Source: a bacterium (lineage in GTDB: Bacteria > SM23-31). Taken from it: a stretch of 64,000 nt of DNA. Where the stretch lies: assembly GCA_965221205.1 (NCBI GenBank), contig OZ244870.1, positions 1,118,782-1,182,781 on the forward strand, in the 5' to 3' direction. This document shows positions 13,518 through 60,319 of the stretch, in pieces (the stretch's first letter is position 1; the number at the start of each line of letters is the position of its first letter). Made by a program: the position numbers and the translations under genes. Under the pieces are notes generated by a model. It saw only the letters and a program-made list of their open reading frames with translations, searched no databases and was not told the DNA's origin.

Positions 13518-13550
13518 ATAATGGCTAAATAATGGATATTGAATAGCTCA

Positions 13551-14162
13551 ATGAACCGATTCCAATTGAATTTCAAACGGAATGTTGGTCCAACTTCTGA
13601 AAATATACGAATGTGTGCTCCAGCGACTATTGAAGAATGGCGAGAATATTATTTTGAAAACGTTAGACCTAAAGAGCATATTGAAGATCTTGGCAGGAAA
13701 TTATATATTAAGATTACAGAAGTTATTTCAGCTGAAGTAGAAAAAATTACCGAACAGGATTGCATAAATTATATGATGCAATTAGTTATTGACCGGACAT
13801 TCGATGGTTATATGACAGAAATTAAAACAATTTATGGCCAGCTTCAAAAACTACTTGGTATAAAAATCGAACCTGCGCCTGACGAGTGGGATAGACTGTA
13901 CAACGTAGACTTCTGTATTAAAATTAATGAAAAGTTTGTCGGAATACAAATAAAACCAGTAAATCAAGGTATTCAGCTACCTCAGATATTTAAAGAAAAG
14001 GAGATTCAACGTAAATCTCATGAAAAGTTTAAAGATCGATTTGGCGGCAAGGTATTTTATGTCTTTTCTTCTAAAAAAGAAGACAAAAAAGAAATTATTA
14101 ATAAAGAAGTGGTTAGTGAGATATTACAAGAGATTGATCGATTAATATTAGATAACGATTAA
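13551..14162 (+). CDS. Candidate restriction endonuclease or other nuclease partner of the methyltransferase (unknown family)
   Basis: About 200 aa, starting 20-35 bp after the MTase stop on the same strand, with the same AT-rich composition. It has a possible PD-(D/E)xK-like arrangement VDFCIKINEKFVGIQIK. The assignment rests on gene context only. Confidence 0.35.
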   Translation: MNRFQLNFKRNVGPTSENIRMCAPATIEEWREYYFENVRPKEHIEDLGRKLYIKITEVISAEVEKITEQDCINYMMQLVIDRTFDGYMTEIKTIYGQLQKLLGIKIEPAPDEWDRLYNVDFCIKINEKFVGIQIKPVNQGIQLPQIFKEKEIQRKSHEKFKDRFGGKVFYVFSSKKEDKKEIINKEVVSEILQEIDRLILDND

Positions 14163-17672: not shown

Positions 17673-18872
17673 TCAGTCTTCCATCCGTTTTATTGATACT
17701 ACTTTCGGGAATATTGATCTTGTAATCCCCACCATCGGCACGGTAGTCAGCCAGACACGCTCTCCTTCAATAATTTTCATATCGATCTCATCAACCGATT
17801 GTACATCTTTCATTTCAGGTTTTATCTCGGTAATAATGCCGAAGAGTTCGGATTCCGGTGTAAAAACAGTACTGGTCATAAAACAGAGCGATTTTCCGGC
17901 ATGTTCATTCTCATCAGAAATGGTAAAAGCAATTTTAATTGCTTCACCGCCCGGTGCCTGAGACTCTGTAATAAATCGAACTGTTGCAGGATATCGGCCT
18001 TCCGGAGGGAAATAATTTTCTTCCTGCACTTTTACTTCTAATTGTATTTCCTCAATCAGAAATGTCTTTGCCCGATAGTTTCCGTCAGGAAGCACGGTCG
18101 GAATTGAGTACTGCGGATCGGTCAACAAGGCATACACAGTCGGATCGCCATCTCTCACTTTTTCTTTCGAGTTCAGCGGCCATTCGCTGCTGATTTGCTC
18201 AGCCCGTCCTGGGAGATTTTGTGCACTCAAAATCGATGTAATCGTCCAGTACATGTACTCGTCGATCTGACAGCCGTACCGGCATGATTCATCGTAGTAG
18301 TTATACCAGGAGCCATCGGGATACTGCTCGGGGGCATCCTTGAAATGTCCGCCTCTCGCTAAGTCCGCCGCCGCCGCCACTTTTGAGCCAGGTACGGGTG
18401 CAAATACCGATGGATATGCATTGCCCCATCCGTGACGCGTCAAGAGGTGGAGAGTCTCTTCCCATAAACCGTCGAACGTGTTGTTTTCGATAGCATTCGG
18501 ACGTGATTCATCAGCGAAATTATCGTGATAGACACCGTCGGGAAACGCGTAATGCAAGTCCTCATGGATCGCTTCCCATTCGTCTCCGGAATCCTTCGTC
18601 ATGACAAGTATAGCTTTTTTCTCGACCAGCGCATTCACAACACGCTGATCGTCAGGTATTCCGTCTTCATCATTGTCAAGATATTCTGCCAGAACATTCG
18701 CTGCATGCAGTAATTTTTCGTTGGGAGAGGTCGGAGTAGCATAGAGATGAATGCCAAATACATCCACCTGCTTCGTAAACACCGGGACTTCCAGTTGTTC
18801 TGTGCTAACTGTTGAGCAGCTAATCACCGCTAAATATGATAATCCTAACAGTGTGATCAATAATCTCTTCAT
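17673..18872 (-). CDS. Secreted lipoprotein of unknown function, tandem paralog 1, containing an HEDLH (HExxH-like) motif
   Basis: 399 aa. Signal peptide with lipobox-like LAVISCST. About 88% identical to the ORF at 19100-20299. Confidence 0.7.
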   Translation of the reverse strand: MKRLLITLLGLSYLAVISCSTVSTEQLEVPVFTKQVDVFGIHLYATPTSPNEKLLHAANVLAEYLDNDEDGIPDDQRVVNALVEKKAILVMTKDSGDEWEAIHEDLHYAFPDGVYHDNFADESRPNAIENNTFDGLWEETLHLLTRHGWGNAYPSVFAPVPGSKVAAAADLARGGHFKDAPEQYPDGSWYNYYDESCRYGCQIDEYMYWTITSILSAQNLPGRAEQISSEWPLNSKEKVRDGDPTVYALLTDPQYSIPTVLPDGNYRAKTFLIEEIQLEVKVQEENYFPPEGRYPATVRFITESQAPGGEAIKIAFTISDENEHAGKSLCFMTSTVFTPESELFGIITEIKPEMKDVQSVDEIDMKIIEGERVWLTTVPMVGITRSIFPKVVSIKRMED

Positions 18873-19099: not shown

Positions 19100-20299
19100 T
19101 TAGTCTTCCATCCGTACTATTGATACTACTTTCGGAAATACCGATCCTGTAATCCCCACCATCGGTTCGGTAGTCAGCCAGACACGCTCTCCTTCAATGA
19201 TAGTCATATCGATCTCGTCAACCGATTGCACATCTTTCATTTCAGGTATTATCTCGGTAATGATACTGAAGAGTTCGGATTCAAGTGTAAAAACAGTACT
19301 GGTCATAAAACAGAGCGATTTTCCTGCATGTTCATTTTCATCGGTAATGGTAAAAGCAATTTTAATCGCTTCACCGCCTGGTGCCTGAGACTCTGTAATA
19401 AATCGAACTGTTGCAGGATATCGGCCTTCCGGAGGAAAATAATTTTCTTCCTGCACTTTTACTTCTAATTGAATTTCCTCAATCAGAAATGTCTTTGCCC
19501 GATAGTTTCCGTCAGGAAGCACGGTCGGAATTGAGTACTGCGGATCGGTCAACAGGGTGTACACACTCGGATCGCCATCTCTCACCTTATCCTTTGTGTT
19601 CAGCGGCCATTCGGCGTTAATTCGCTCAGCCCGTCCAGGGAGATTTTGTGCACCCAAAATCGATGTAATCGTCCAGTACATATACTCGTCAATCTGACAG
19701 CCATACCGGCATGACGCATCGTAATAATTATACCATGAGCCATCAGGATACTGCTCAGGAGCATCTTTGAAGTGTCCGCCTCTCGCTAAGTCCACCGCCG
19801 CCGCCACTTTTGAGCCAGGTACGGGTGCAAATACCGTTGGATATGCATTGCCCCATCCATGACGCGTTAAAAGATGGAGGATTTCTTCCCATGAACCGTC
19901 GAACACGCCGTCTTCGATAGCATTCGGACTTGTTTGGTTAGCGTAGTTGTTGTGATAGACAGCGTCGGGAAATGCGTAATTTAAATCCTCATGGATCGCT
20001 TCCCATTCGTCGCCGGAATCCTTCGTCATGATGATAATAGCTTTTTTCTCGACCAGCGCATTCATAACATGCCGGTCATCGGGTACACCATCTTCATCAT
20101 TATCAAGATATTCTGCCAGAACATTTGCTGCGTGTAGCAATTTTTCGTCGGGAGAAGTCGGAGTAGCATAGAGATGAATGCCAAACACATCTACCAGTTT
20201 CGTTAACACCGGGACTTCCGGGTTTTCCGAGCTGACTGTGGTGCAGCTCATCAACACCAAACATGACAATCCTAACAGTGCGATCAATAATCTCTTCAT
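19100..20299 (-). CDS. Secreted lipoprotein of unknown function, tandem paralog 2, with HEDLN in place of HEDLH
   Basis: 399 aa. Lipobox-like LVLMSCTT. Flanking non-coding DNA is also duplicated. Confidence 0.7.
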   Translation of the reverse strand: MKRLLIALLGLSCLVLMSCTTVSSENPEVPVLTKLVDVFGIHLYATPTSPDEKLLHAANVLAEYLDNDEDGVPDDRHVMNALVEKKAIIIMTKDSGDEWEAIHEDLNYAFPDAVYHNNYANQTSPNAIEDGVFDGSWEEILHLLTRHGWGNAYPTVFAPVPGSKVAAAVDLARGGHFKDAPEQYPDGSWYNYYDASCRYGCQIDEYMYWTITSILGAQNLPGRAERINAEWPLNTKDKVRDGDPSVYTLLTDPQYSIPTVLPDGNYRAKTFLIEEIQLEVKVQEENYFPPEGRYPATVRFITESQAPGGEAIKIAFTITDENEHAGKSLCFMTSTVFTLESELFSIITEIIPEMKDVQSVDEIDMTIIEGERVWLTTEPMVGITGSVFPKVVSIVRMED

Positions 20300-21592: not shown

Positions 21593-23128
21593 TTACCATG
21601 GCAATGGAGCAACACGAGGCAGTTTTTCATCCCGCATAGCTGCATGATATACGAATGTTGCAAGTATAACCGTATTTGCCATGAGGTCTTCGGGTACAAG
21701 ACGGTCAAATACGTCCATGTTGGAGTGGTACCTGCGACCGTCCATTCTATCCTGTAGAAAATAATACCCCGGAAGTCCTACCTCATCATATGCCTCATGT
21801 GCCATTCCCGTAGAAAAAAGATGTCTCATTCCCAGGTTGTAAAGCGGCTTCATCCATTCGGTAAAGATTGACCGGGTCATTTCATTACCCATAATGTTCA
21901 GACCTTTTATTCTGGCAGCGCCGTTATCGATGTTAAAATATGCCGATAGATTATGATAATCTGGTTTATATTCCTTTTTAGCAAGGTTGGCAAAATTATT
22001 TCGGACATGACTCCGGTTGCCGTATAAACCCATTTCATGTCCACCCCAGAGTCCAATTCGTAGTGTTCTCCGCGGTTTGATACCGAGTGCCTTGAAGATA
22101 CGAACTACTTCCATTGAAACAATAGTACCGGCGCCATCATCAGTTGCACCTGTCCCGACGGGCTCCGACTGAAGATGTCCGCCTACTACAACTAATTCAT
22201 CTGCCAGGTCTGTACCGGGAATCTCTGCGACAACATTATAATCATTCGGATCGTCTCTGGGGAAATCCACTTTAATATCAATTTCCAATTCCACTGGGAT
22301 CCCTTTTTCAAGAATACGTACAATCCTGTTGTAATGTTCCGCTGCCATAATAATCTCTCTGATGGGTGGCGGAGCATCCGTATTCCACATTTGATTTGTC
22401 ATAGCATATCCCCCTACCGCAGTATCGACTGTGCCGAAATCATTTTTCCCATCCGTTCGGGCAACCATATAGGCACCTGCTGCGAACAACATGTCGATTT
22501 TCTGCTCCTGCGAAAGCCCGGCATTACGGCGTCTGCGCTCGCGAACAACAGGAGGGCCGACGGGAGTTTTCGCCATTTCGTCCAATTCTTCTTCGGTATA
22601 TGGTTGTGTCATCGGCTCAAAGTGCGGTGTGATTACCTGTTTCGCCTGCATAAAAACAATTTTATCCCGAATAGTATTCCGGTATGTATCAAGGTCCGAT
22701 TCGGTGTTAATTTCATCAAGATTAATATGTATTGCCTCTGCCTCTATTTTTCCGTCTGTTCCGGCAGACCAAGCAGCAGGATACGCTATGATAGGCATAT
22801 ATTGGGGGGCAATCATGTGGATGGATGTGTATAAATTTTCCCAGCCTACACCAAATTCGAACGGTTCCAGCCGCACATTTGAGAGTCCATACTCTTCCAG
22901 TTTTTCTTTCGCCCATTGTGCAGCAGCATTATAACCGGATGATTTCGAGTTCCGGGGCCCATACACATCAGTTATCCAGCTGGCATTCTCCATCACTTCA
23001 GAGCGTTCAAATGCTTCGTCCATGATCTTATCGACGACATCCCAGTGGACCGGTTCCTGTGCAAAGACAGTTGAAGTTACAGCAACTGTTAAAAACAATG
23101 CTACCATGTATCTGTAATAATTACTCAT
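21593..23128 (-). CDS. Secreted M28-like (PA-domain-containing) metallopeptidase-fold protein, paralog 1 of 7
   Basis: Signal peptide ending AQEPVHWDVV. M28-like core GGHLQSEPVGTGATDDGAG ... WGGHEMGLYGN ... HSNMDVFDRL. Conserved C-terminal tail DEKLPRVAPLPW. Confidence 0.6.
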   Translation of the reverse strand: MSNYYRYMVALFLTVAVTSTVFAQEPVHWDVVDKIMDEAFERSEVMENASWITDVYGPRNSKSSGYNAAAQWAKEKLEEYGLSNVRLEPFEFGVGWENLYTSIHMIAPQYMPIIAYPAAWSAGTDGKIEAEAIHINLDEINTESDLDTYRNTIRDKIVFMQAKQVITPHFEPMTQPYTEEELDEMAKTPVGPPVVRERRRRNAGLSQEQKIDMLFAAGAYMVARTDGKNDFGTVDTAVGGYAMTNQMWNTDAPPPIREIIMAAEHYNRIVRILEKGIPVELEIDIKVDFPRDDPNDYNVVAEIPGTDLADELVVVGGHLQSEPVGTGATDDGAGTIVSMEVVRIFKALGIKPRRTLRIGLWGGHEMGLYGNRSHVRNNFANLAKKEYKPDYHNLSAYFNIDNGAARIKGLNIMGNEMTRSIFTEWMKPLYNLGMRHLFSTGMAHEAYDEVGLPGYYFLQDRMDGRRYHSNMDVFDRLVPEDLMANTVILATFVYHAAMRDEKLPRVAPLPW

Positions 23129-23160
23129 AATATTTCTCTCCTCTCAAGTTGAATATTTTC

Positions 23161-24807
23161 TTACCATAGTTTTTCAATTTCATCGGTGAGACCGGTCATC
23201 TCCCACCGCACTAACGACATGGGGATCATTCCCAAAGCCCTGAAATCATCGACAAATTCACCAAGAACAAAATCATCACCACGGACTTTTGCTGCATCTT
23301 CTATCAAACTCATCATCTGTATTTTCCCGAGAACCATTCCCATATGCCAACCGGGAGCACGAAGTGTCGTCTTCATCTCAAACCAGACTTCATGACCTCC
23401 ATCGATCATCCAGTTGTATGGTGTTTCTTCGTAGCAAAACTGGAGCGCATCGGCCAGGTCAAATTCATTGTTATGCATTTTCAGATCGGCCAGACCACGC
23501 ACAGCCCGGAAGGCTTTCGCGATTAAATTGACCTCCTCTCCACGTGGACGGTCTTCATAAATTCCGGAATGCAGAAAAATTTCTTCGAGTCCGAAAGCCA
23601 TACCCTCATTCCGAATCATATCGATATCATAGAGCCTGGTGGTTCCCCGTATCGGTCGTCCGTCACGCTGATGTATTAATTCATCCAGATGGTGACCAAG
23701 GTTATTATGTGCCACTTCGGCAATCATATCACGGTCTCTGCACTGTTGAAAAAAGTCCTGTTTGTCTTCCGATCCAGGTGCATTCCACCATTCTCCCGGA
23801 TTGTTCGTTGTCATATAGTCCGGTATGGTGAACAAACCTTCATCCTCGATGAATTGAAACATATACTGTTCATCATTTCGCCATCGCCGCTGGTACTCTT
23901 CAGGAGATGAAACTAACTGAAGGGGAGGCAGATTGCGGTTTCTGTGCTCAACAATTTTAAGCGCCCCGACTGAGTGTTCATATTCTCGCTCGAGGCTTGC
24001 GTACAGTTCATCCCAGGTATAGGGAACAAGATGCACATTTTTGAGCCACCAGTTATAGTTTTCTTTTCCGATTCCCGCTGGAGTGGTCATTGAATTAATG
24101 TTCGCTTCGATCCATTTACCGTAATCCTCCACTGCGGCAATTGCCAGTTCAATTTCTGAGAGCATTTCGGGATGGTGTTCCGTCAATTGTTTGCCGAGGT
24201 TTTCATACAGTTTTATTTCTCTTTCAAGAAAATGCAGAGCAATGAGAGCGAAATCCCCAGCTGCTTCGGTGAGATTCCCCTTTGCCTGTTCAAGCAGTTC
24301 AGGAGCAGCCCGAAGCTGTGCTCTGAAATTCGCAGCTTCTTCTTCAGACATTGGCAGTTCGGAAATTCTTGGTCTTCCATAAGCCGTCGGTCCGGCACCT
24401 CCCATAGAAAATAAGTAGAATACAGGATCCCGCGACCACGGCCTGCGTATTGTATGGTCGAATTCCAGACCGTTCATTTCTGCACGCACTACGTGGTAAT
24501 CCACTTGCTGCAAAACAGGCCAGTCACTTAAATTAATCGCCGCAAGTCGTTGCTGATATTCCTGTATTCTGCTGAACTGTTCCCTCAGTGCTGAAGCAGT
24601 GTAGTCGGGAACACTATTGATTTCTTTCGGTCTCTCAAATTCTCGAAATTCCTGAAAAAGTGCAATGAGATCATCATATGAATTCAATTCTGTCATGTCG
24701 GTTCTGCTACTCTCCGAAGTACACGACACGAAGAGGAGGATAAAAAGATACATGCAAACTCGTATTTTCAAATAATGTCTGTTCATAATATTCTCCAAAT
24801 ATTTCAT
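23161..24807 (-). CDS. Secreted hypothetical protein, possibly DUF885-like, embedded in the M28-like gene array
   Basis: 548 aa with N-terminal signal/lipoprotein sequence (LFILLFVSCTSES). Contains NLGHHLDELIH and GGHEVWFEMK segments. The DUF885 assignment is from memory of that family's conserved HH-containing motifs and is unverified. Confidence 0.35.
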   Translation of the reverse strand: MKYLENIMNRHYLKIRVCMYLFILLFVSCTSESSRTDMTELNSYDDLIALFQEFREFERPKEINSVPDYTASALREQFSRIQEYQQRLAAINLSDWPVLQQVDYHVVRAEMNGLEFDHTIRRPWSRDPVFYLFSMGGAGPTAYGRPRISELPMSEEEAANFRAQLRAAPELLEQAKGNLTEAAGDFALIALHFLEREIKLYENLGKQLTEHHPEMLSEIELAIAAVEDYGKWIEANINSMTTPAGIGKENYNWWLKNVHLVPYTWDELYASLEREYEHSVGALKIVEHRNRNLPPLQLVSSPEEYQRRWRNDEQYMFQFIEDEGLFTIPDYMTTNNPGEWWNAPGSEDKQDFFQQCRDRDMIAEVAHNNLGHHLDELIHQRDGRPIRGTTRLYDIDMIRNEGMAFGLEEIFLHSGIYEDRPRGEEVNLIAKAFRAVRGLADLKMHNNEFDLADALQFCYEETPYNWMIDGGHEVWFEMKTTLRAPGWHMGMVLGKIQMMSLIEDAAKVRGDDFVLGEFVDDFRALGMIPMSLVRWEMTGLTDEIEKLW

Positions 24808-24844
24808 CGATTACTTCACAGTTGAATAGTTTTATATGATTTCA

Positions 24845-26434
24845 CTACCACGGTAATTGAGCAACACGGGGAAGTTTTTCATCACGCATTGCAGCATGAT
24901 ACACAAACGTTGCAATAATGGCAACATTGGTCATCGTGTTTTCCGGAATAGCGCGATCTAACATGTCCATATTAGTGTGGGCATTCGTTTCCATATCATT
25001 TCTATCCTGATAAAAATAAAATCCCGGCAATCCGACTTCAGCGTACGCTTCATGGTAACCAGGATTACCGCCGATAGGCATTCCGCCGGGTATCAGATGT
25101 GACATACCCAGGCTGTGTAACGGCTTCATCCATTCGGTAAAAATTGACCGTATCTCTTCATTCCCCATGACCGATACAGCCCGTATCTTACCGGTTCCAT
25201 GATCTGAATCAAAGTACGCTGAAAGATTATGATAATCCCTTTTATATTCTTTAGTAGTCGGATCCGCAAAGTTTTTGCGGACATGACTCCGGTTACCTGC
25301 TAATCCAGCGCCATCATGTCCACCCCAGAGTCCCATCCGAACGGTTCGCCGTGGTTTAAGCCCTAATTTTTTAAAAATCCGTGCAACTTCCATAGCAGAA
25401 GCTGCACCGACTGCGTTATCAGTCGCACCGGTACCGACAGGCACAGACTGAAGGTGACCACCAAATACAACTATTTCATGCGGTAGATCAGTGCCGGGAA
25501 TCTCGGCAATAACGTTATGGTCATTCGGATTACCCCTGAAAAAGTTTGTCCGGACTTCGATCTCCATTTCGACAGGAATTTCCTTATTCAATATTCGAAT
25601 GATCCGGTTATATTGTTCCACTGCCAAGACAAGCTCTGTAGGCTGTGGAAGTGCACCCTCTTTCCACAGTCCTGATGCTCTATCATATCTACTGAGCGCA
25701 ACTGTTCCGAAATCATGTTGGCCGTCCGGGTGTGCAATAGCAACGGCACCCTCAGCAAATACAAAATCGATGATTTGTTGGCGCGTCAGTCTGTTTTCAC
25801 TAAGATTGGGTCTCGTCCGCCCTTGTCTTTGTAATTCAATATCCAACACAGATATTTCCGGAGCAATGGGTATTTTCGCCATTGCATCGAGTTGCTCTTT
25901 TGTAAATATTGTTGCTATTGGTTCAAAATGGGGTGAGAGTTTGTGTTCCGGTCTTATAAATATGATTGTGTTCTTTAATTTTCCTCGGTATTGTTTCAAA
26001 TCTGTTCCAGAAACAAGTTCGTCAAAGTTGATATACATGGCATTGGCCCGGATTTTTCCATCTGTTCCGGACGACCACGGAGCAGGATAGGCAATAAGCG
26101 GCATATACTGGGGAGCCATCATGTGTACTGAGGTGTAACCAATATTCCAACCGGCACCGAATTCGTACGGCTCAAGTCTGGCATTCGTGAGACCATTCTC
26201 TTTGAGTCTGTCTCGAGCCCATTCCGCAGCCGCACGGTATGAAGGTGTCTTCACATTTCGAGGTCCGTATACATCAGCCAGCCAGCTGGCATTGTCCATA
26301 ACTTGAGAATTATTAAAAGCTTCTTCCATTATTTTATCTACGACATCCCAATAGACCGGTTCCTGTGCGAAAGCTGATAACGTTAAGAGAACAATTAACA
26401 ACATTACGACGATATTGTGATAAAGAGTGCACAT
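24845..26434 (-). CDS. Secreted M28-like PA-domain protein, paralog 2 (variant with WGGHDGAG)
   Basis: Signal peptide ending AQEPVYWDVV. GGHLQSVPVGTGATDNAVGA ... WGGHDGAGLAGN. Tail DEKLPRVAQLPW. Confidence 0.6.
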   Translation of the reverse strand: MCTLYHNIVVMLLIVLLTLSAFAQEPVYWDVVDKIMEEAFNNSQVMDNASWLADVYGPRNVKTPSYRAAAEWARDRLKENGLTNARLEPYEFGAGWNIGYTSVHMMAPQYMPLIAYPAPWSSGTDGKIRANAMYINFDELVSGTDLKQYRGKLKNTIIFIRPEHKLSPHFEPIATIFTKEQLDAMAKIPIAPEISVLDIELQRQGRTRPNLSENRLTRQQIIDFVFAEGAVAIAHPDGQHDFGTVALSRYDRASGLWKEGALPQPTELVLAVEQYNRIIRILNKEIPVEMEIEVRTNFFRGNPNDHNVIAEIPGTDLPHEIVVFGGHLQSVPVGTGATDNAVGAASAMEVARIFKKLGLKPRRTVRMGLWGGHDGAGLAGNRSHVRKNFADPTTKEYKRDYHNLSAYFDSDHGTGKIRAVSVMGNEEIRSIFTEWMKPLHSLGMSHLIPGGMPIGGNPGYHEAYAEVGLPGFYFYQDRNDMETNAHTNMDMLDRAIPENTMTNVAIIATFVYHAAMRDEKLPRVAQLPW

Positions 26435-26467
26435 TGTATTCCTTATATTGTATGTTGAAGAGTTACT

Positions 26468-28018
26468 TTACCATGGCAGCGGTGCAACTCTGGGAAGTTT
26501 CTCATCACGCATAGCAGTATGATACACAAACGATGTCAGGACAACTGAAGCTTGCATCAAGCCTTCCGGAACAAGCCTCTCATAGGTATCCATATTACTG
26601 TGTGAATTCATGTCGTCGATCTCTTTTCGGTCATGGTCAAAATAAAAGCCCAGCAGACCGACTTCCCTGTATGCTTCATGTTGGCTTCCTGACGTAAACA
26701 GATGTGTCATACCCAAGTTTTTCAGCGGCTTCATCCACTCGGTAAATATTGATCTGAGAAGTTCATTTCCCATAATGGAAACACCCCGTATCCTGCCGGT
26801 TCCAATATCGATATTGTAATATGCAGAGAGGTTATCATAATCCTTTTTGTATTTTTTCGTTACCGGATCAGCAAAGTTTTCCCGGACATGAGCACGGTTC
26901 CCGATCGTACCCATTTCATGACCTCCCCAGAATCCTACTCGGATCGTTCGTCTTGGTTTGACTCCGATCGCCATAAGAGTTCGTGCTGCTTCAAGTGTAG
27001 CCACGACACCCGCACCATTATCAATAGCACCCGTACCAGCAGGATTCGCCTGCAAGTGCCCCCCAAAAAGAACTATTTCATTCGCCAGGTCAGTACCGGG
27101 AATTTCTGCTATGACATTGAAATCGTTTGGACCATCACTGTTAAAAGAGACTCGCACTTCAAGTTCTATTTCAACAGGAATACCTTTTTCCAAAATTCGC
27201 ATTATCCTGTTGTAGTGTTCAGCAATCATGATCAATTCTGTTGGATTCGGTTGCGCCCCCTGTTCCCATGGCCGTGTTTCCATCGTATATCGTCTATTCT
27301 CAACTCTGACAGATCCATAACTGCTTTGTCCGTCTGTACGAACAATTGCCACTGCACCTTCACCAAACACAAAGTCGATAATCTGCTGTCTCGATAGCCT
27401 ATCATCTTCCGACCTTCGACCGCGGTGCACTTGTGTGACACGGGGTCCAACAGAAATTTTCGACATTTCATCAAGCTGTTCATCGGATAATCTCTCATTA
27501 AGCGGAGTAAATCTGTGTGTGATCTCCTGTTTCGGCGTGGTGAATATGATAGCGTTGTGCAGATTACCCCGATACTGTTCCAGATCAGATTCTGAAGCAA
27601 TCTCATCGAAATTTACATAGACGATCGGGCCACGAACTTTTCCATTAGTACCCTCGGACCACAATGCGGGATATGCGACGATCTGCATGTACCGAGGGGA
27701 CATCATGTGAACAGAAGTGTAGTTGTTATCCCAGCCAATACCAAATTCATACGGTTCCAAATGTGCGTTTGGAACACCATAATCATCCAATTTTTCTTTT
27801 ACCCATTCAGCTGCAGCAAAATAACTTGGCGTTTTTGCGCCCCGCGGTCCAAAGACGTCGGTCAGCCAGCTGGCATTTTCCATGACTTCGTTATTTGCAA
27901 ACGATTCATCCATAATCTTCTGCACAACATCGTAGTATACTTTTTCCTGTGCATTGGTGGAGACTGCTGCAATAAGCAGTATAATTAATCCAGCTACACA
28001 TATACATTGAGCTTTCAT
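26468..28018 (-). CDS. Secreted M28-like PA-domain protein, paralog 3
   Basis: Signal peptide ending NAQEKVYYDVV. GGHLQANPAGTGAIDNGAG ... WGGHEMGTIGN. Tail DEKLPRVAPLPW. Confidence 0.6.
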   Translation of the reverse strand: MKAQCICVAGLIILLIAAVSTNAQEKVYYDVVQKIMDESFANNEVMENASWLTDVFGPRGAKTPSYFAAAEWVKEKLDDYGVPNAHLEPYEFGIGWDNNYTSVHMMSPRYMQIVAYPALWSEGTNGKVRGPIVYVNFDEIASESDLEQYRGNLHNAIIFTTPKQEITHRFTPLNERLSDEQLDEMSKISVGPRVTQVHRGRRSEDDRLSRQQIIDFVFGEGAVAIVRTDGQSSYGSVRVENRRYTMETRPWEQGAQPNPTELIMIAEHYNRIMRILEKGIPVEIELEVRVSFNSDGPNDFNVIAEIPGTDLANEIVLFGGHLQANPAGTGAIDNGAGVVATLEAARTLMAIGVKPRRTIRVGFWGGHEMGTIGNRAHVRENFADPVTKKYKKDYDNLSAYYNIDIGTGRIRGVSIMGNELLRSIFTEWMKPLKNLGMTHLFTSGSQHEAYREVGLLGFYFDHDRKEIDDMNSHSNMDTYERLVPEGLMQASVVLTSFVYHTAMRDEKLPRVAPLPW

Positions 28019-28060
28019 AGTACTATTTACACCTCCTGCTATAAAATCAAATGAAATTCC

Positions 28061-29623
28061 TTATCGTACCGGCATTGGTGCAATGCGGGGAAGTTTTTCA
28101 TCACGCATTGCGGCATGGTATGCTAAACTTGCCATGACAACTGCGGACTGCATCATGTCCTCCGGTATAAGGCGGTCATATACATCCATGTTGGTATGAG
28201 CGTTTCTGTTATCTAAATTAAATAATTCCTGCAGAAAGGAAAACCCTGGCAGACCGACTGCCGAAAACCTGCGATCTTCAGAGCCTACTACTTCCGGTAT
28301 GAGATGGGTCATCCCGAGACGATGCAGCGGTTTCAACCATTCGGTGAAGATAGAACGCACCTGTTCATTTCCCTGAAGAAAAATTCCGCGAAACCTACCG
28401 GTACCATGGTCGGTGTTAAAATAAACGGATAATTGAGAGTGCTCCGGTTTATATATCTGTGTTTCCGGATCACCGAAGTGGGCGAGTACATAATTCCGCG
28501 AACCGAAATTGCCCATCTCATGCGCACCCCAGAGCCCAATGCGAATAGTCCGCCGGGGTTCCACTCCGATTGCTTTGAGAATTCGTAATGCTTCCATACA
28601 AACGGCAACACCGGCGACATCATCTATTGCACCGGTACCGGCCGGATCAGCCTGAAGATGTGCTCCGAACATTGCCACCTCATTAGCAAGGTCTGTTCCC
28701 GGAAGCTCAGCAACGACATTGTAATCAGTGAAATCGTCATCGATAAAATTCACCCGTATTTCAACTTCCATTTCAACGGGAATTCCTTTTTTCATTATTC
28801 TGAGTATCCGGTTATAATGCTCAGCTAGTACAACCAGCTCTGTAATAGGAGGAAGAGGATTCTTTTCCCATAAACGATTTTCCAGAGCATATCCTTCGAC
28901 ACCCGCATCGACAACACCATATCCATTCGTTTGACCATCATGATGTGCAATTGCTAAAGCTCCCTCTGCAAACACAAAAGCGATTTTCTCATTGTTTGTC
29001 AGTCTGTTTTCGTCATCTATGCGTCCTCGCCGTGCACCGGAATCGCCGGGGCCGATGTGGATTTTTGCCATTTCATCAAGCTGTTCCTCTGTAAATCTAT
29101 CTGCTATGTGATCAAAATGGGGTGAGACACTCAGTTCCGGTGTAGTAAATACAATTTTGTTTATTAGTTTTCCACGGTATGGTTCAAGATCGGCTTTGGT
29201 ATTGATCTCATCAAAGTTGACAAAAATTACCGGTTCCCTGATTTTTCCATCTGTTCCGGCAGACCATGGAGCCGGATACGCTATCATCGGCATATACTGA
29301 GGTGACATCATATGCACCGACGCATACTCTTTCTCCCAGCCTATACCGAACTCAAACGGTTCAAGAGCAACATTCGATAAGCCGAACTCCTCTAATCGAT
29401 CTTTAGTCCAATCTGCGGCTGCACGATATGATGATGAATTTGCGTTCCGCGGCCCAAAAACATCGGTCAACCAGCTTGCAGTTTCCATAACACGCGAATT
29501 TTCGAAACCTTCAATTATGATCTTATCGACAGCATTCCAGTACACTTTTTCTTGAGCAAATGCGGAATGTGCAGTGAGAAGAAGCAACAATAAACCTGTA
29601 CTTACAGTGCGTTGTAACTTCAT
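28061..29623 (-). CDS. Secreted M28-like PA-domain protein, paralog 4; start trimmed to MKLQRTVSTG to remove an ORF-caller overlap
   Basis: Signal peptide ending AFAQEKVYWNAV. GAHLQADPAGTGAIDDVAG ... WGAHEMGNFGS. Divergent tail DEKLPRIAPMPVR. Confidence 0.55.
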   Translation of the reverse strand: MKLQRTVSTGLLLLLLTAHSAFAQEKVYWNAVDKIIIEGFENSRVMETASWLTDVFGPRNANSSSYRAAADWTKDRLEEFGLSNVALEPFEFGIGWEKEYASVHMMSPQYMPMIAYPAPWSAGTDGKIREPVIFVNFDEINTKADLEPYRGKLINKIVFTTPELSVSPHFDHIADRFTEEQLDEMAKIHIGPGDSGARRGRIDDENRLTNNEKIAFVFAEGALAIAHHDGQTNGYGVVDAGVEGYALENRLWEKNPLPPITELVVLAEHYNRILRIMKKGIPVEMEVEIRVNFIDDDFTDYNVVAELPGTDLANEVAMFGAHLQADPAGTGAIDDVAGVAVCMEALRILKAIGVEPRRTIRIGLWGAHEMGNFGSRNYVLAHFGDPETQIYKPEHSQLSVYFNTDHGTGRFRGIFLQGNEQVRSIFTEWLKPLHRLGMTHLIPEVVGSEDRRFSAVGLPGFSFLQELFNLDNRNAHTNMDVYDRLIPEDMMQSAVVMASLAYHAAMRDEKLPRIAPMPVR

Positions 29624-29657
29624 TAGTACGCCCCTATAAATTATTTGATATAATATG

Positions 29658-31205
29658 TTACCAGGGTCTTGGTGCGAACCGGGGAAGTCTTTCATCACGC
29701 ATGGCGGCGTGATATGCGAACGTCGCAATTATGACAGCGTTTGCTATGAGATCTTCCTCTACAAGACGGTCATAGGCATCCATATTGGAATGGTATTGGC
29801 GGCTATCCATTCTGTCCTGTATAAAATAGTAACTCGGCAGGCCAACTGCATCATATGCTTCATGGACCATTCCATACGGGATAAGATGAGTCATGCCGAG
29901 ATTATGGAGCGGCTTCATCCATTCTGTGAATATGGCACGAAGTCGTTCATTACCCTGAATAGGAACACCACGTATCCTGCCGCTGCCATGGTCGATATTA
30001 AAATATGCGGAAAGGTTATCGTAATCTTTTTTGTATTCCTTTGTTTCCGGATCGGCAAAGTGTTTTCGAACATGAGCCCGGTTTCCGAATACACCCATTT
30101 CATGCCCGCCAAAGATAGCTATCCGTATAGTCCGGCGGGGTTGGATTCCGAGAGCCTTAAGAATACGTACAGCTTCCATGCAGACAACGACACCCGCAGC
30201 ATCATCGGCAGCGCCGCCTCCAGCTGGGTTTGCCTGAAGATGCCCGCCCAAGAGAACAATTTCTTCTGCAAGGTCGGTACCCGGAATTTCGGCAACTACA
30301 TTGTAATCTGTCAGGTCATCCCGGTTAAATGAGACTTTTAGCTCAAGTTCAATCTCGACTGGAATATCTTTCTCCAGAATACGCATGATCCGATTATACT
30401 GTTCAGTTGACATAACCAGTTCGGTAGGAGGGGAGGGAGCGTCCACTTCCCACAATCTGTTATCTAGAGTATAACGGTTGTTCTCTACAGCAACAGTCCC
30501 GAAATCATTTCTACCGTCCATCCGCACAATAGCTGCCGCGCCTTCGCCAAATACAAAATCGAGAATTTTCTGCCGTGAAAGCCTTTCCGGACGGGAACGC
30601 CTGTTTCGCTCATCTGTAATCCGGGGACCGATAGGAATTTTCGCCATCTCATCGAGCTGTTCTTTGGTATAGCGTGTTGCGGGTGGATCAAAGTGAGGTG
30701 TTAATGTTCGTTTAGGTTCTGTTAAGACGACTGCATTGCGAAGTTTTCCACGGTATAGCCGGAGGTCTACTTCCGATGCTATATCTCCAAAATTAATGTA
30801 AACTGCCCGCCCTTTGACCTTGCCGTTGGTTCCGGCAGACCACGTCGCGGGATAAGCAATAATTGGCATGTACTGAGGAGACATCATATGGACCGAAATA
30901 TATTCATTCACATAGCCAACCCCGAACTCATACGGTTCCAACTCAGCATTCGATAACCCATATTCCTGTAACCGCTCTTTCACCCATTCAGCCGATGCAA
31001 TGTATCCAGGTGATTTTGCATTCCTCGGTGCAAATACATCCACAATCCAACTTGCATTCTCCATGACGTCGGAGTTTTTGAAAGCTTCATCCATGATCTT
31101 GTCGACAACATCCCAGTGGACAGGTTCCTGTGCATGAACAGAAAACACTGACGTAAACAGCAACATTAATACTAATACTCCAGCGCAAATACATTTTGAC
31201 TTCAT
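29658..31205 (-). CDS. Secreted M28-like PA-domain protein, paralog 5; likely start at MKSKCICAG
   Basis: Signal peptide ending VHAQEPVHWDVV. GGHLQANPAGGGAADDAAG ... FGGHEMGVFGN. Tail DERLPRFAPRPW. Confidence 0.6.
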   Translation of the reverse strand: MKSKCICAGVLVLMLLFTSVFSVHAQEPVHWDVVDKIMDEAFKNSDVMENASWIVDVFAPRNAKSPGYIASAEWVKERLQEYGLSNAELEPYEFGVGYVNEYISVHMMSPQYMPIIAYPATWSAGTNGKVKGRAVYINFGDIASEVDLRLYRGKLRNAVVLTEPKRTLTPHFDPPATRYTKEQLDEMAKIPIGPRITDERNRRSRPERLSRQKILDFVFGEGAAAIVRMDGRNDFGTVAVENNRYTLDNRLWEVDAPSPPTELVMSTEQYNRIMRILEKDIPVEIELELKVSFNRDDLTDYNVVAEIPGTDLAEEIVLLGGHLQANPAGGGAADDAAGVVVCMEAVRILKALGIQPRRTIRIAIFGGHEMGVFGNRAHVRKHFADPETKEYKKDYDNLSAYFNIDHGSGRIRGVPIQGNERLRAIFTEWMKPLHNLGMTHLIPYGMVHEAYDAVGLPSYYFIQDRMDSRQYHSNMDAYDRLVEEDLIANAVIIATFAYHAAMRDERLPRFAPRPW

Positions 31206-31589
31206 AGAAAAACCCTCCTGAAACAATGTACATATTTAAATTATTTCGGACACCACATCTTTAATAGTACCTAATAGTACCTTTTGAATATTGATTTTAC
31301 AAGTGTTTTTTCTTCCTCTCCATGCAGATTCGATAAATATAAGAATTCATAGCCGTGAGGTTGATTGAAAAACCTCAAAGATGAATAACCGGGGTTCTAT
31401 ATTTTACTTCATTATCATTTTATACAGATTGTTATTCTCACTAAAATTTTGTATATTACTACCGTAGTTTTTGAAAGGTTGTTCACAAGCAGTCAAAGAC
31501 GAATCCTGGAGTAGGATACTGTTCGCCGGAACATGTTCCTGATCCGGGTTTTTGTATTTTGTCTACACTGTTTATTGGAAGTTGTGATG

Positions 31590-35399: not shown

Positions 35400-36757
35400 A
35401 ATACGTAAATATTTCAAAGCTTTATATTATCGTACCAGAGCAATTTGTTCCGTTGAGGGAATGAACCATTTGATTCCATCTTCGGTCAAAAGCACGTTCT
35501 CTTCAAAATCCATCACCATTTTTCTGCCGCCCCATTCGGGCATTGGATAGTAAACGAAGAATTCAAGAGAATGGAGCTGGTTAAGTTTAAGTACAAGGTT
35601 GCTGCAATATGGCTGCTCTTCATCGATCCAAACGGCAGGTCCGAATCCGTGGCCCTGCTCTCCGACAGTATGTCATCCAATATTGATCTCAATATTTTGG
35701 CTGTCTGAAACGTAGTCTTCGAGACGACAGATCTCATATCCAAGTTCTCGCAGTTTATCATATATAACATTCAGTGTCTCAAGCCCTGTACGGCCCGGTT
35801 TTGTGAGTTTATGTGACAATTCCCGCACTTTCAACCTATGATCCCAGATTTTTTGTATTGTCTCCGGTATTCCGGTTTCTCCTTCACGGAGCACATATGC
35901 CCACCGTTCGATGTCGGTGCTATAATCGCCCATTATTTGGCTTATCCCAGCCAACAAGGTCTCCCCGTTGGATGACTAAATCTCGTGGTCCTCGAGTTGG
36001 TGTTCTGACAAGCGGGTTGCCGTCGTTGTCTGTCGGCATATGCGTAGTATATCCACGGGCTATCAATTGATCCGCCATCCAAAAGCTCAAGTCGCCCAAT
36101 GTCGTCACTCCCGATACAATAACCTCCATTGAATAAAGCTCTCTCAACTAGCTCTCTGGTTAATTCTATCGACTTTCTGAATAGTGAAATTTCACTTCCT
36201 ACTTTGATCGAACGAAAGTCGCTGACGAGATCCTCCGACGAGACAAGCCGTGCCGCATATTTCTCACCGAGAGTCTTGAGGAGAGCCAAATAATTGGTAT
36301 GGGAAAGCCCATCAGCAGTTCCAAGATTGGCGGGCATATTGACCGCAATGTTTTTTGGATCGCGCTCTTCAACGAACTTCCTCAAATTTTCTGTCACTCC
36401 AAAGATGTCGTAAAGCTTGGGACTGCCGCCGGTACCTAAGGCAGCTCGTTCGATTCTGTCACCGCCGCGGTGGGCAAACACTAAATAAGCCAGATTTTCT
36501 CCAAGATACCACTTATCCGAAGCGCCGCCGCCAACGTCTGAAGCAAGAAGCGGGTCAAGACGCTTATACTTCTGCACTATAATCAACATGTCGATGTTAT
36601 TTTCCCACATCGCTTTGGGCAGCACAATATCGAGCTTTTCCATGCGAATCAGATTCTTCATTTCCCAGCGGGCTTTTGCTTCCTGAGCGTGAGCAGGGTA
36701 TCCTTGGACAAAGAAAAGACCAGAAAATAGCATGAGTAATGGCCATGATTTACGCAT
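35400..36757 (-). pseudogene. Disrupted paralog of the secreted M24-like (creatinase-N / pita-bread) family; signal peptide and N-domain intact, C-terminal half in at least three frames
   Basis: The N-terminal ORF 35942-36757 aligns with the 48551 protein (LDIVLPKAMWENNIDMLIIV ... GGDRIERAALGTGG ... FVEERDPKNIAVN). ORF 35673-35957 contains EGETGIPETIQKIWDHRLKVRE. The 3' end translates to GFGPAVWIDEE...LEFFVYYPMPE in another frame. Confidence 0.65.
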
Positions 36758-36999: not shown

Positions 37000-38751
37000 C
37001 TACCATACAAACAATAATTTTGTTACAAACCAGGTAGTGAAAACAAGTAAAAAACATGCTCCGACTATTTTTATAAAACCTGGAAAGTACCATTTTAAAT
37101 TTGGTTCGTTGCGAAGCTCAATTGTGCTATCCGTTCCAAATATTTTATCTTTGCTATCCTCTGCATATATTTTTTCCACCTCAGTCACGCTCATTTCTTC
37201 CTGACCATCAGACATAAGACCTGCGTCAATTAAAGCGGGCAATTTGATTCCTGCATTAACCAGCCGCTCTTCACGTCCAACCGGTGTGTTTAATATAACG
37301 TGGAAACGTTTAACCTTGAGGGCATCGGCTGGTTTTCCGATCAAAGTCCCAACGACCATACAAAATAACGCCACACTAGTAGAAATGAACACCGTCTGCT
37401 CAAATGCCGGATTAATTGCATCAACAAACCCCAAATTCGACTGAATCATATTGGTGACCACAACCGATATATAGGTAACGATCCCACCACTTAATGAAAG
37501 CCACATACCGGTGCAATTGGCTCGCTGCCAGATCACTCCGAAATAGATTGATATTCCAAGAAACGAAAGCAGCGTTAATGTCAGCTTTACATAGTCTTCA
37601 ATCGATGAAAGGTTGTGTGTCGAAAGCGCCGCAATAATTATTGAGATTACTGCCCAAATACGTGCAACGTTGAGATAATGTTTCAGTTTTTTGCCAGGCC
37701 GAATTGTCTTCCTGTAGAGGTAATCTACTCCGATTGCGGAAGAGGTTGTGGCAAAGGTGTCCGCTGAAGACATTGCCGCAGCAAAAAAACTTGCAACAAG
37801 GAGTCCCAAAACACCAACCGGTAATATTTCCCCCATGACAATACCCCAGGCTAACTCAGGGTCATCCAGTCCGGGCCGATAAATTGCGAATAGAATACCA
37901 TAGATAGCAAACAACAACGTGATTAATCGTTTCCAGAGATGTCCCCATGCACATTGGGTCGCGGCTTTTTCGTTCTTTGAAACCGAGATCCAGTTAAATA
38001 TCCATGGTGCTGCAATGCCGCCAACGAGAGCAGAGAGATTTAGCGCTAGCACAGTCCAGATGGTCATCCGTTCTGGGTCAACTAAATTCCAGATTTCAGG
38101 ATGAGCAGCACTGTAATTCATCAAGGAATTCCAGCCTCCTGCATTGATCCATAAAAATGGCAACATAATGAAACTCAGAACAAAAAGACACATTAATCCC
38201 TGAAGAATGTCGGTCAATAACGCAGACATCATCCCTCCGGAAAATACATATGAACCAACAATGACAGTGATAATCCAGACACAATGCTGTGGTTGTAAAG
38301 TGGTCAACCCGGCCAATACTTTTGCTATGGCTAACAGAATCATCCCAATAAATAAAATGCAGATGATCGTTGCAACAACTGAATACAGTGAGGAGACATA
38401 TCTGTCGTATCGCATCTCAAGAAACTCAGATATGTTATAGACCCTCGACCTGCGGAAATAAGTGGAAAATAAGTAATAAATAGGAGTTGCAAAAAGGAAA
38501 CTCCACCAGTACCAGACCCCAGAAAGTCCGCTTTTATAGGCCTGTCCTCCTACGACAACTGCCTCGTTACCCGCAATCGCTGAAGCGAAGACGAAAATAA
38601 AGGACACAAGAGCACCCCATTTACCACCTGCTACAAAAAAGTCACCCAGGCTCTTAGTTCGTTTTACTCCTTGAAAAATGCCAATGTATAGTACAATACC
38701 GAAATATACTATAACTATAGTAAAATCAAACCAATGTATGCCCAGTATCAT
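37000..38751 (-). CDS. Sodium:solute symporter (SSS) family transporter with a C-terminal extension
   Basis: 583 aa with about 13 predicted TM segments. SSS-like N-terminus and a C-terminal cytoplasmic domain plus a final TM segment. Confidence 0.75.
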   Translation of the reverse strand: MILGIHWFDFTIVIVYFGIVLYIGIFQGVKRTKSLGDFFVAGGKWGALVSFIFVFASAIAGNEAVVVGGQAYKSGLSGVWYWWSFLFATPIYYLFSTYFRRSRVYNISEFLEMRYDRYVSSLYSVVATIICILFIGMILLAIAKVLAGLTTLQPQHCVWIITVIVGSYVFSGGMMSALLTDILQGLMCLFVLSFIMLPFLWINAGGWNSLMNYSAAHPEIWNLVDPERMTIWTVLALNLSALVGGIAAPWIFNWISVSKNEKAATQCAWGHLWKRLITLLFAIYGILFAIYRPGLDDPELAWGIVMGEILPVGVLGLLVASFFAAAMSSADTFATTSSAIGVDYLYRKTIRPGKKLKHYLNVARIWAVISIIIAALSTHNLSSIEDYVKLTLTLLSFLGISIYFGVIWQRANCTGMWLSLSGGIVTYISVVVTNMIQSNLGFVDAINPAFEQTVFISTSVALFCMVVGTLIGKPADALKVKRFHVILNTPVGREERLVNAGIKLPALIDAGLMSDGQEEMSVTEVEKIYAEDSKDKIFGTDSTIELRNEPNLKWYFPGFIKIVGACFLLVFTTWFVTKLLFVW

Positions 38752-45475: not shown

Positions 45476-46396
45476 ATGGCAAAAAATCTCTCGATTTTAG
45501 ACTTCTTCAAAACTTTTCCGGATGACGATTCTTGTCTTGAACACCTTATGCTCAGACGCTTTGGCAATCCATTGGCATATCCGAAGTGCGGTAAAGTAAG
45601 GATGCTTCGCCAAGCTGAAGAAACTCCCAGCCATGGTGAGAACGCCTTTCGAGCGAAGCAGAATACTGCTTCAAAAGTGGTACTATGCCATGTACTTGTT
45701 CAGCACCTCCCGTCACGGCGTTCTCGCGAAAGGAGCTGCAACGCCAGTTGGGTGTTACCTACAAGACAGCGTGGTGCATGAGCCATGAACTGCGCAAACA
45801 TATGGCCAAGGTGGTGGACGGTGAGAGGCCGCTGGGCGGGATCGTCGAAGCCGACGAGAAGCGTGGGCGCGGCGCACCCGACAAGACTGGTGTTCGGGAT
45901 GCTTGAGCGAGATGGTGACGTGATGGTGAGAGTAGTGCTAGACGTGCGCAAGCGGATTCTTCAACCGGTCGTGGCCGGAAACGTTGAACATAGGAGCATC
46001 GTACACACTGACGAATTGCGATCCTATGGAAGGGGGTTGAACAAGGCGGGTTATGCCCATAAGACGGTCAACCATGGGACAGGTGAATATTTGGATGGCA
46101 ACTGCCACGTCAACAGCCTTGAGGGGTTTTGGGTTCGTCTGAAACTGTCGATCTTGAGGACGCATGTTCACGTGTCTCGGCAGCATCTTCAGAAGTATGT
46201 GAAAGAGTTTGAGTATCGATATAACCTTCGGAAGACTCCTCATTTGATGTTTGGCGCTTTGCTCGCCAGACTCGCGCAGACGCCTGCGGACCATAGAAGC
46301 GAACATTCTATCAAAACGCTTCCAGTTGCCGTTACTCAGATGCTCTTTAGCGAAACGATACAATTTCCCGGATTTCCGAGGTTCCCCAAGGCTTAG
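45476..46396 (+). mobile_element. Degraded IS1595-family (ISXO2-like) transposase gene split over three frames; high GC relative to surroundings
   Basis: N-terminal zinc-ribbon-type region MAKNLSILDFFKTFPDDDSCLEHLMLRRFG...PKCG. Middle KELQRQLGVTYKTAWCMSHELRKHM. DDE region HTDELRSYGRGL...NSLEGFWVRLK. These lie in ORFs 45416-45781, 45685-45906 and 45785-46396. Confidence 0.7.
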
Positions 46397-60075: not shown

Positions 60076-60319
60076 AAATGAAAGATTAAAAAACAGCCTC
60101 AATTCCATACGGGTTAGGCTGTATAGCAATAAACCCTCCTTATATGTGCAAATAAAGTTTTAATCGTTGTCTATATTATATTGGAGGAGAGTTACCTGGA
60201 TTACTACCTTTCGGAGGAGGTGCGAAAATAAGATTTGGATAAACCAAATCTATCCCTTAGTTTTTAACCGAAAGTGTCCAACATGTTCTGATGATGTAAA
60301 CTCAATCAGGAATTACACA

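Follow-up and report, generated by a model that had tools for sequence, protein, structure and literature searches.

Can a metallopeptidase of the M28 family exchange the glutamate that serves as its general base for another residue and still be an enzyme? The question is raised by a 64-kb stretch of bacterial DNA (GTDB lineage SM23-31; assembly GCA_965221205.1, contig OZ244870.1, positions 1,118,782 to 1,182,781 of the forward strand), here called the window, in which a search with a family-derived profile detects exactly seven full-length M28-like genes, W1 to W7. The clan MH metallopeptidases are textbook enzymes in which a co-catalytic metal pair has a Glu next to it as general base. In all seven copies this Glu is a His, and Gln stands in place of the HxD Asp (Gln320 in W1). 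A sequence-only reading of the locus had noticed both substitutions and had left two ways to understand them: the metal stoichiometry or chemistry is altered, or the proteins bind their ligands rather than cleave them. An altered chemistry is now the better supported, and mere binding is disfavored; on an altered stoichiometry, sequence speaks neither for nor against. On balance, we think it probable that the paralogs belong to a clade of metal-dependent hydrolases in which His acts as the general base, a view built on sequence comparison.

Seven paralogs and the register of their active sites

The reading just mentioned had equated the HLQ and HE strings of the paralogs with M28 His97/Asp99 and Glu151/Glu152 (numbering of AAP, the aminopeptidase of Aeromonas/Vibrio proteolyticus), and three concordant alignments uphold that homology. 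In a phmmer search of W1 against all PDB chains, 3IIB (an M28 protein of Shewanella amazonensis; E 5.5e-26) pairs GGHLQS with GAHLDS, GATDDGAG with GAIDDGAG, and WGGHEMGLYG with YAAEELGLLG; a 40-sequence profile finds 3IIB at E 1.4e-31 with the register unchanged, also against PaAP/KP1; and a gapless 53-residue fragment alignment to AAP matches Asp330, His364, and Glu365 of W1 to Asp117, Glu151, and Glu152. The His of the HE or HD pair occupies the general-base position (AAP Glu151, PaAP Glu340), and the Glu or Asp that follows it occupies that of a zinc ligand. The mutations in PaAP E340A and in the “inactive” GCPII E424A/M fall on the residue aligned to W1 His364, according to the PDB entry titles and to the AAEA of the KP1 sequence. 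No canonical EE pair is present at or adjoining the general-base position in any of the seven copies. Misalignment of the HLQ and HE positions is ruled out, the single-sequence, profile, and fragment registers being identical against 3IIB, PaAP, SGAP, and AAP.

The Gln motif is found in every paralog, as claimed, in the form G(G/A)HLQ(S/A): GGHLQS in W1 (22166 to 22183), W2 (25445 to 25462), and W6; GGHLQA in W3, W5, and W7; and GAHLQA in W4. The bridging Asp is likewise kept in all paralogs within GA(T/I/A)D(D/N), which reads GATDD in W1 (22136 to 22150), GATDN in W2 and W7, GAIDN in W3, GAIDD in W4, and GAADD in W5. Among the copies with a His-Glu pair, the proposed pattern WG(G/A)HEMG holds for W1, W3, and W7 (WGGHEMG; WGGHE at 22034 to 22048, 26915 to 26929, and 61409 to 61423, respectively) and for W4 (WGAHEMG; WGAHE at 28517 to 28531) but not for W5, which has FGGHEMG (FGGHE at 30099 to 30113). 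The switch to His-Asp in two copies is there as described: WGGHDGAG in W2 (WGGHD at 25313 to 25327) and WGGHDGAE in W6 (WGGHD at 39553 to 39567). W2 also has one extra residue behind HD and a 7-residue loop insertion, IGGNPGY. A fourth ligand, missing from the first list, is the Asp of Y(F/Y)(N/D)xDxG, present in every copy (YFNIDNG at 21920 to 21940 in W1; YFDSDHG, YYNIDIG, YFNTDHG, and YFNIDHG in W2 to W5; YFNVDHG in W7). The terminal motif, given earlier as HSNMDxxDRL, is kept in kind, its actual pattern being H(S/T)NMDxx(D/E)R(L/A), with YHSNMD in W1 (21713 to 21730) and W5, AHTNMD in W2 and W4, SHSNMD in W3, and VHSNMD in W7.

In W1 numbering, the five predicted metal ligands are His318, Asp330, Glu365 (Asp in W2 and W6), Asp401, and His468, which would presumably be occupied by metal; all five align with the motifs of 3IIB. 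The Asp of HxD, replaced here by Gln320, is in AAP what we take to be a second-shell partner of the first His ligand. The ligands of AAP itself are Asp117, Glu152, and His256 for Zn1 and His97, Asp117, and Asp179 for Zn2 (PMC7522609, Table 1), and the canonical clan MH signature consists of HXD, D, EE, D/E, and H (PMC7804941). By predicted fold, ligands, and descent the window copies are clearly M28 proteins, ones in which two signature features, the general-base Glu and the HxD Asp, are absent.

An AlphaFold2 model of W1 computed from the clade alignment (predicted local distance difference test score [pLDDT] 89.4, predicted TM-score 0.87) has 3IIB as its best Foldseek match (E 3.2e-29, target-normalized TM-score 0.75), with further matches to PaAP, BSAP, GCPII, and the transferrin receptor; on this model, W1 is predicted to consist of an M28 catalytic domain into which a PA-type domain is inserted. 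Sequence score, fold, and the five ligands place the paralogs in M28 (PF04389; clan MH), and their position in the tree described below places them in the carboxypeptidase-Q-like/3IIB-like subfamily (about 510 residues, with a signal peptide and a PA domain). They do not fall with the transferrin-receptor-type noncatalytic homologs, which are marked by ligand loss, because the ligands are kept in every copy; nor do they fall with the glutaminyl cyclases, because they lack the Glu-Glu pair and contain a PA-like insert. No glutaminyl cyclase occurs among the PDB sequence matches of W1 or of the 40-sequence profile.

Six paralogs had been counted between 21593 and 31226. That interval holds five, together with a DUF885 gene; the supposed sixth lies apart at 39085 to 40674, and a seventh lies at 60320 to 61867. 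The interval is an array of six codirectional minus-strand genes, separated by gaps of 32 to 42 bp and transcribed in the order W5 (29658 to 31205; 515 residues from an ATG), W4 (28061 to 29623; 520 residues from an ATG), W3 (26468 to 28018; 516 residues), W2 (24845 to 26434; 529 residues), the DUF885 gene (23161 to 24807; Pfam PF05960, E 7.4e-22; Peptidase_MA clan), and W1 (21593 to 23128; 511 residues; Pfam PF04389, E 1.7e-21). An aldo/keto reductase gene follows 88 bp beyond W1 in transcription order, and the six-gene layout is also kept in a related genome; a scan of the array for promoters and terminators gave counts not above those of shuffled sequence. W6 is on the minus strand (529 residues; 895 bits against the clade profile) and is of the HD type, as is W2. 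W7 is on the plus strand (515 residues from an ATG, with a TTG open reading frame [ORF] starting at 60167; PF04389, E 2.1e-18; 948.9 bits against the clade profile) and, with W1, W3, W4, and W5, is of the HE type. The starts of W4 and W5 are most likely the internal ATGs at 29623 and 31205, because these align with the N-termini of the other paralogs; the TTG starts of the longer ORFs, at 29728 and 31226, are less likely.

Pairwise identity among the window copies is 54 to 67%, except for W2 and W6, which are 82% identical. In W1 to W5 the Pfam Peptidase_M28 match covers the C-terminal ~190 residues (E 1e-18 to 1e-21), and W1 to W5 and W7 score 67 to 77 bits against PF04389, for which the cutoff is 21.3 bits. 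Among NCBIfam models nothing exceeds threshold for the paralogs, the only matches being partial ones to M20/M28 models. At the N-terminus all copies have a basic, hydrophobic stretch that closes with A-x-A and precedes Q-E, by inspection a signal peptide.

Origin and conservation of the histidine clade

Is the His variant an oddity of this genome? The relatives rule that out. The general-base column is His in each of the 120 closest database clusters (52 to 92% identity); adding the six paralogs then known brings the count to 126 of 126, with Glu (106) or Asp (20) as the next residue and Gln (117), Asp (3), Glu (3), or His (3) at the HxD position. Such uniformity, in 126 of 126 sequences and again in all 142 members of the clade defined below, is far beyond chance. 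The opposite possibility, that the whole full-length family is noncanonical, is excluded as well, since HxD and EE are kept in most relatives at about 40% identity, among them proteins of Hymenobacter, Pontibacter, Chitinophagaceae, Melioribacter, Gemmatimonadota, Calditrichia, and numerous Acidobacteriota. Both motifs are found in 70 of 93 full-length relatives from named genomes in which the column is covered (the other 23 have His) and in 135 of the best 150 representatives of 50%-identity clusters.

In a neighbor-joining tree of 341 sequences the His/Gln proteins all group into a single clade of 142 members, which lies inside the canonical part of the tree; with the 12 diagnostic columns masked, its bootstrap in a 123-sequence subsample is 99/100. 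Its nearest sisters are the canonical proteins L010, L012, P0121, and P0128, from the same lineage of uncultured metagenome-assembled genomes (MAGs). P0121 is 53% identical to W1, and the canonical copies L010 and L012 are retained in the related complete MAG OZ252239.1. The His/Gln variant is a derived clade of single origin inside a canonical HxD/EE family. Within this HE clade, the HD type makes up most of a 31-member subclade; in 19 of 25 members HD is followed by an extra residue, a departure from the canonical spacing of the HE and EE types. The earlier suggestion that the two subtypes reflect diversification is borne out and was, if anything, understated, given this nested subclade with its coupled insertion and the variation of the residue ahead of the last His ligand (Tyr, Ala, Val, or Ser) across the paralogs. 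The window copies are spread over at least five old subclades, with W4 in the basal one and W7 unplaced, and are ancient paralogs rather than recent duplicates.

A His at the general-base position also turns up outside the clade, in 8 of the 341 tree sequences and 10 of the 150 top representatives, all of the WGGHEGA type with HxD kept. Among this WGGHEGA/E group are P0146, P0148, P0160, and P0163, which retain HxD and the other canonical motifs. The group suggests at least one further Glu-to-His event, and so at least two; because these sequences keep HxD, Glu can evidently give way to His without an Asp-to-Gln change. The Glu-to-His change itself takes two nucleotide substitutions (GAR to CAY; the window codons are CAT and CAC), and its fixation therefore fits duplication and selection in genomes that also kept canonical copies. 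Named cluster members point to uncultured marine Acidobacteriota, with Tara Oceans sequences in some clusters and more than 200 member sequences, from marine metagenomes, in some of those of the His clade. Related genomes of uncultured marine bacteria hold several more copies at separate loci. The database labels are “M28 family peptidase,” “M20/M25/M40 family metallo-hydrolase,” and “carboxypeptidase Q.”

Throughout the 142-member clade each of the five ligand positions is occupied in 142 of 142 sequences (the third by Glu in 117 and by Asp in 25), and His364 is equally invariant; the HxD position has Gln in 132, Glu in 4, Asp in 3, and His in 3. The ratio of nonsynonymous to synonymous substitution rates (dN/dS) is 0.04 to 0.16 for four window genes compared with their orthologs in the related genome L002 and 0.13 for W2 compared with W6. 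The window genes are under purifying selection, and the site is maintained rather than decaying; intact frames, these ratios, and the invariant ligands rule out decaying pseudogenes. A subtler form of inactivity has to be considered, in which the metal site is kept for structure or ligand capture and the proteins, like the transferrin receptor, would be peptide-binding proteins or receptors without turnover. The canonical general base is indeed gone from every copy, the transferrin receptor is among the structural matches of the W1 model, and the DUF885 protein of the array and M24-like genes in the vicinity likewise have unusual residues at positions presumed to be catalytic or metal-binding, which could mean a set of noncatalytic binders. 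We nevertheless consider pseudoenzymes quite improbable. Known noncatalytic M28 homologs do not keep their ligands as this clade does; no residue other than His, itself a competent general base, takes the place of the Glu; selection is strong; and AAP with the same substitution, E151H, is titled “functional” in the reference lists of PMC4320195 and PMC3426542. With five ligands and a His invariant in 142 sequences, and with purifying selection on the genes, decay into a binding protein is therefore unlikely, and the sequence-only reading's alternative of binding proteins in place of peptidases loses ground to the ligand counts, the dN/dS values, and the AAP E151H precedent alike.

At least six further conserved positions have changed together with the His variant. 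The clade has lost four carboxylates of the catalytic domain (D320Q, E364H, the Asp at 431, and the “T-D-H” Asp at 443, in W1 numbering), the canonical His323, and the canonical His ahead of the last His ligand (“HH”), where position 467 is now Tyr, Ala, Val, or Ser; the SGAP residue matching that position, Tyr246, is listed as catalytically important (PMC3426542). It has gained a near-invariant His436 (139 of 142), as well as Tyr456, Tyr447, Glu445, His374, Asn60, and Lys62. The Pfam M28 scores are 67 to 77 bits for the His clade, as against 107 to 113 bits for its canonical sisters.

Changes on this scale could mean a different chemistry or substrate class: a mononuclear enzyme or one using another metal, action on anionic or N-blocked peptides or on nonpeptide amides or esters, or transfer or cyclization as in glutaminyl cyclases and GPAA1. 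The lost carboxylates, the conserved His436, Tyr456, Tyr447, and Glu445 gained, the exchange of the first His ligand's second-shell Asp for a neutral residue (132 of 142 members), and the drop in Pfam score all point that way; seven copies in 64 kb suggest a new niche; and single-zinc sites and other chemistries are documented on the M28 fold (PMC7522609). Such a change is nonetheless unlikely, in our judgment, because the five ligand positions are still invariant, the architecture as a whole matches that of the canonical sisters, the neighbors are peptide and amino-acid genes, and the locus holds no pointer to a particular nonpeptide substrate. A broader formulation is that an ancient lineage with rebuilt catalysis (His base, neutral second shell, new His, Tyr, and Glu residues) has turned to a substrate class or chemistry foreign to canonical M28 peptidases; this we find doubtful, and the candidates under it would be use of another metal, a nonhydrolytic reaction, or, as substrates, marine dissolved organic matter peptides that are anionic or N-blocked.

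One of the gained residues bears on the general base directly. Where canonical sequences read “gtDH.sF,” the clade reads “tGm.HeAY,” so that the acid moves from one residue before the motif His to one residue after it; Glu445 replaces the lost “T-D-H” Asp two residues earlier and is acidic in 85% of the clade, compared with 8% of canonical sequences. As one and the same clade conserves both this shift of the acid and the exchange of Glu for His, the general base might have been relocated to a new conserved carboxylate such as Glu445, leaving His364 to bind the substrate or an extra metal. We hold this to be very improbable: His364 aligns exactly to Glu151, it is conserved in 100% of the clade as opposed to 85% for Glu445, and lineages outside the clade have His364 without the acid shift.

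A probable histidine general base and its precedents

How, then, would a His-based hydrolase work? We posit that the seven genes encode exported M28 metallohydrolases of carboxypeptidase-Q/3IIB-like architecture, made with a signal peptide, in which a metal-bound water or hydroxide would attack the scissile amide while His364 takes up the proton and then protonates the leaving amine, on the pattern of the engineered AAP E151H; analogy with the natural His of DppA suggests the same proton-shuttling role. The neutral Gln320 and the other substitutions would re-tune the site, and we infer that this remodeling adjusts catalysis, in its pH dependence, in the acidity of the metal, or in the preferred charge of the substrate, and does not abolish it. 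With Glu364 and Asp320 replaced, the site would lose about two units of negative charge, provided that His364 is neutral, a shift that would be expected to favor anionic substrates or to lower the pKa of the metal-bound water. In the cell, the paralogs could form a battery of periplasmic or extracellular exopeptidases that differ in specificity and feed amino-acid uptake, a role that fits both the differences among them (HE or HD with its insertion; Tyr, Ala, Val, or Ser at position 467) and the transporter- and peptidase-like genes nearby. The cell in question would be an uncultured marine bacterium, probably with ties to Acidobacteriota. The fold, the ligands, and the likely type of reaction are familiar; the function we infer from them.

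The engineered AAP E151H (PDB 2ANP) has the same His-Glu pair, AAP 151/152 corresponding to W1 364/365, and the same five ligands. The 2ANP chain reads AAHE for the AAEE of wild-type AAP and matches W1 at E 1.5e-8, compared with 1.9e-7 for the wild type. It is, however, a laboratory point mutant of 291 residues that has no PA domain and keeps Asp99 and the native second shell, whereas the His clade is natural and ancient and carries about ten covarying changes. The mutant was reportedly made to model the natural His of DppA and is said to have an unchanged dinuclear site and much reduced activity. In DppA, the dinuclear zinc D-aminopeptidase of Bacillus subtilis from family M55, a natural His stands where AAP has Glu151; its fold and family are unrelated to those of the His clade, and no sequence relationship between the two was seen, though no comparison was aimed at it. 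The canonical carboxypeptidase-Q-like M28 proteins (3IIB and those of Hymenobacter, Chitinophagaceae, Acidobacteriota, and Gemmatimonadota) have the same length, signal peptide, domain order, and fold, at 40 to 53% identity, but differ in the HxD, EE, conserved His323, “TDH,” and “HH” motifs, all lost in the His clade. Glutaminyl cyclases, GPAA1, and the transferrin receptor have the catalytic-domain fold in common with it. The glutaminyl cyclases keep the Glu-Glu pair and have no PA domain, and the transferrin receptor is without metal ligands; the His clade keeps every ligand and has changed only its base and second shell. GPAA1 has lost ligands, and the M28 fold can carry one zinc, no zinc, or nonhydrolytic chemistry (PMC7522609).

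Several considerations weigh against hydrolysis with a His base. We found no characterized member of the His clade in the literature. Activity of AAP E151H in the work of Bzymek et al. 2005 is said to be about three orders of magnitude below that of the wild type; a bare Glu-to-His swap would thus be costly, and high activity here would hinge on putative compensating changes. Metal binding at the second site could suffer from the Asp-to-Gln replacement beside the first His ligand, and five conserved ligand residues are no proof of a dinuclear site, as glutaminyl cyclases keep five and bind one zinc (PMC7522609). Finally, the tree that delimits the clade is a neighbor-joining tree on a hit-list sample, not a maximum-likelihood tree over the whole family.

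The literature yielded no natural M28 lineage with a His general base and no M28 expansion in marine Acidobacteriota, and the only His at the M28 general-base position that we could trace there is that of the engineered AAP mutant. A large natural clade with an invariant His, a full set of ligands, and defined accompanying substitutions shows that evolution has explored the His solution. It supplies presumptive compensating mutations and amounts to a natural experiment on the base of a co-catalytic metallopeptidase, open to direct test of how efficient His is as a base, what the second-shell Asp contributes, and whether pH optimum, metal, or substrate charge preference has shifted. Automatic schemes that require EE could wrongly call these proteins inactive, and because abundant marine proteins sit under generic labels, their role in ocean protein turnover is unassessed.

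Neighboring genes and other features of the window

The paralogs are accompanied by genes for SSS and SNF transporters, an amidohydrolase, an S9-like hydrolase, pyridoxal-phosphate enzymes, and M24-like proteins. An SSS transporter gene (37000 to 38751) follows W6, and beyond it lies an M24-like gene shortened to 271 residues (35942 to 36757, minus strand); a full M24-like copy, with a weak Pfam M24 match (26.9 bits), is at 48551 to 49981 on the plus strand. The order HD-type M28, SSS transporter, M24-like gene is common to the window (40674 down to 35942) and locus L004. M24-like genes, of the prolidase/aminopeptidase P fold, recur beside His-clade or canonical-sister M28 genes at loci L003, L004, L008, L010, L011, and L013. 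Their profile matches the prolidase 3Q6D at E 2e-7, and what we take to be the position of the first metal-ligand Asp aligns, against 3Q6D, with a nonacidic residue. Upstream of W7 are an IS1595-type transposase gene (57452 to 58174) and an IS3-like integrase gene (58543 to 59385), and a fragment of an SSS transporter gene (63316 to 63891) comes after it.

The DUF885 protein of the array, from a family that Pfam places in the zincin Peptidase_MA clan, has HNNLGHHLD where most relatives have HExxGHxxD. Counted with its 120 closest relatives, HE occurs in 82 and HN in 34, the latter including all of the closest; a presumed catalytic Glu is thus replaced in a second family, too. Coupling of this Glu-to-Asn change to the His type of M28 is unsupported: a canonical HE DUF885 lies beside His-type M28 genes at L005, an HN DUF885 and a His-type M28 gene share locus L013, and an HE DUF885 lies beside canonical M28 genes at L012. 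In the related genome L002, between 6758 and 9967, the orthologs of W2 and DUF885 are broken into several short ORFs, which reflect either real pseudogenization or indel errors; the contig name suggests about 14x coverage.

Two paralogous lipoprotein genes on the minus strand (17673 to 18872 and 19100 to 20299), which we call hyp399, encode proteins of 399 residues each that are 87% identical and have no match in Pfam or PDB sequence searches. Homologs, of which the database holds about 700, flank His-type M28 genes at L002, L006, L011, L015, and L019. The invariant residues include D66, N67, D74, D134, E138, E139, H142, C197, and C201, with an “EExxH” string. An AlphaFold2 model (pLDDT 85) has no confident Foldseek match, the best being to an OB-fold-like structure in the C-terminal part (E 1e-3), with zincin-like peptidase domains at E 0.05 to 0.09.

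Between the amidohydrolase and SNF transporter genes, a low-GC island (12231 to 14162, plus strand; ~30% compared with ~45% elsewhere) encodes an MjaI-type restriction endonuclease together with a DNA methylase-SNase fusion; the island is also present in the related genome L002 and has the look of a restriction-modification module that was acquired. From about 41 to 47 kb, a shortened ORF of an IS1595-type transposase (45785 to 46396, plus strand) lies amid broken ORFs that include pieces resembling a short-chain dehydrogenase and an F420-oxidoreductase, which suggests local gene decay or rearrangement.

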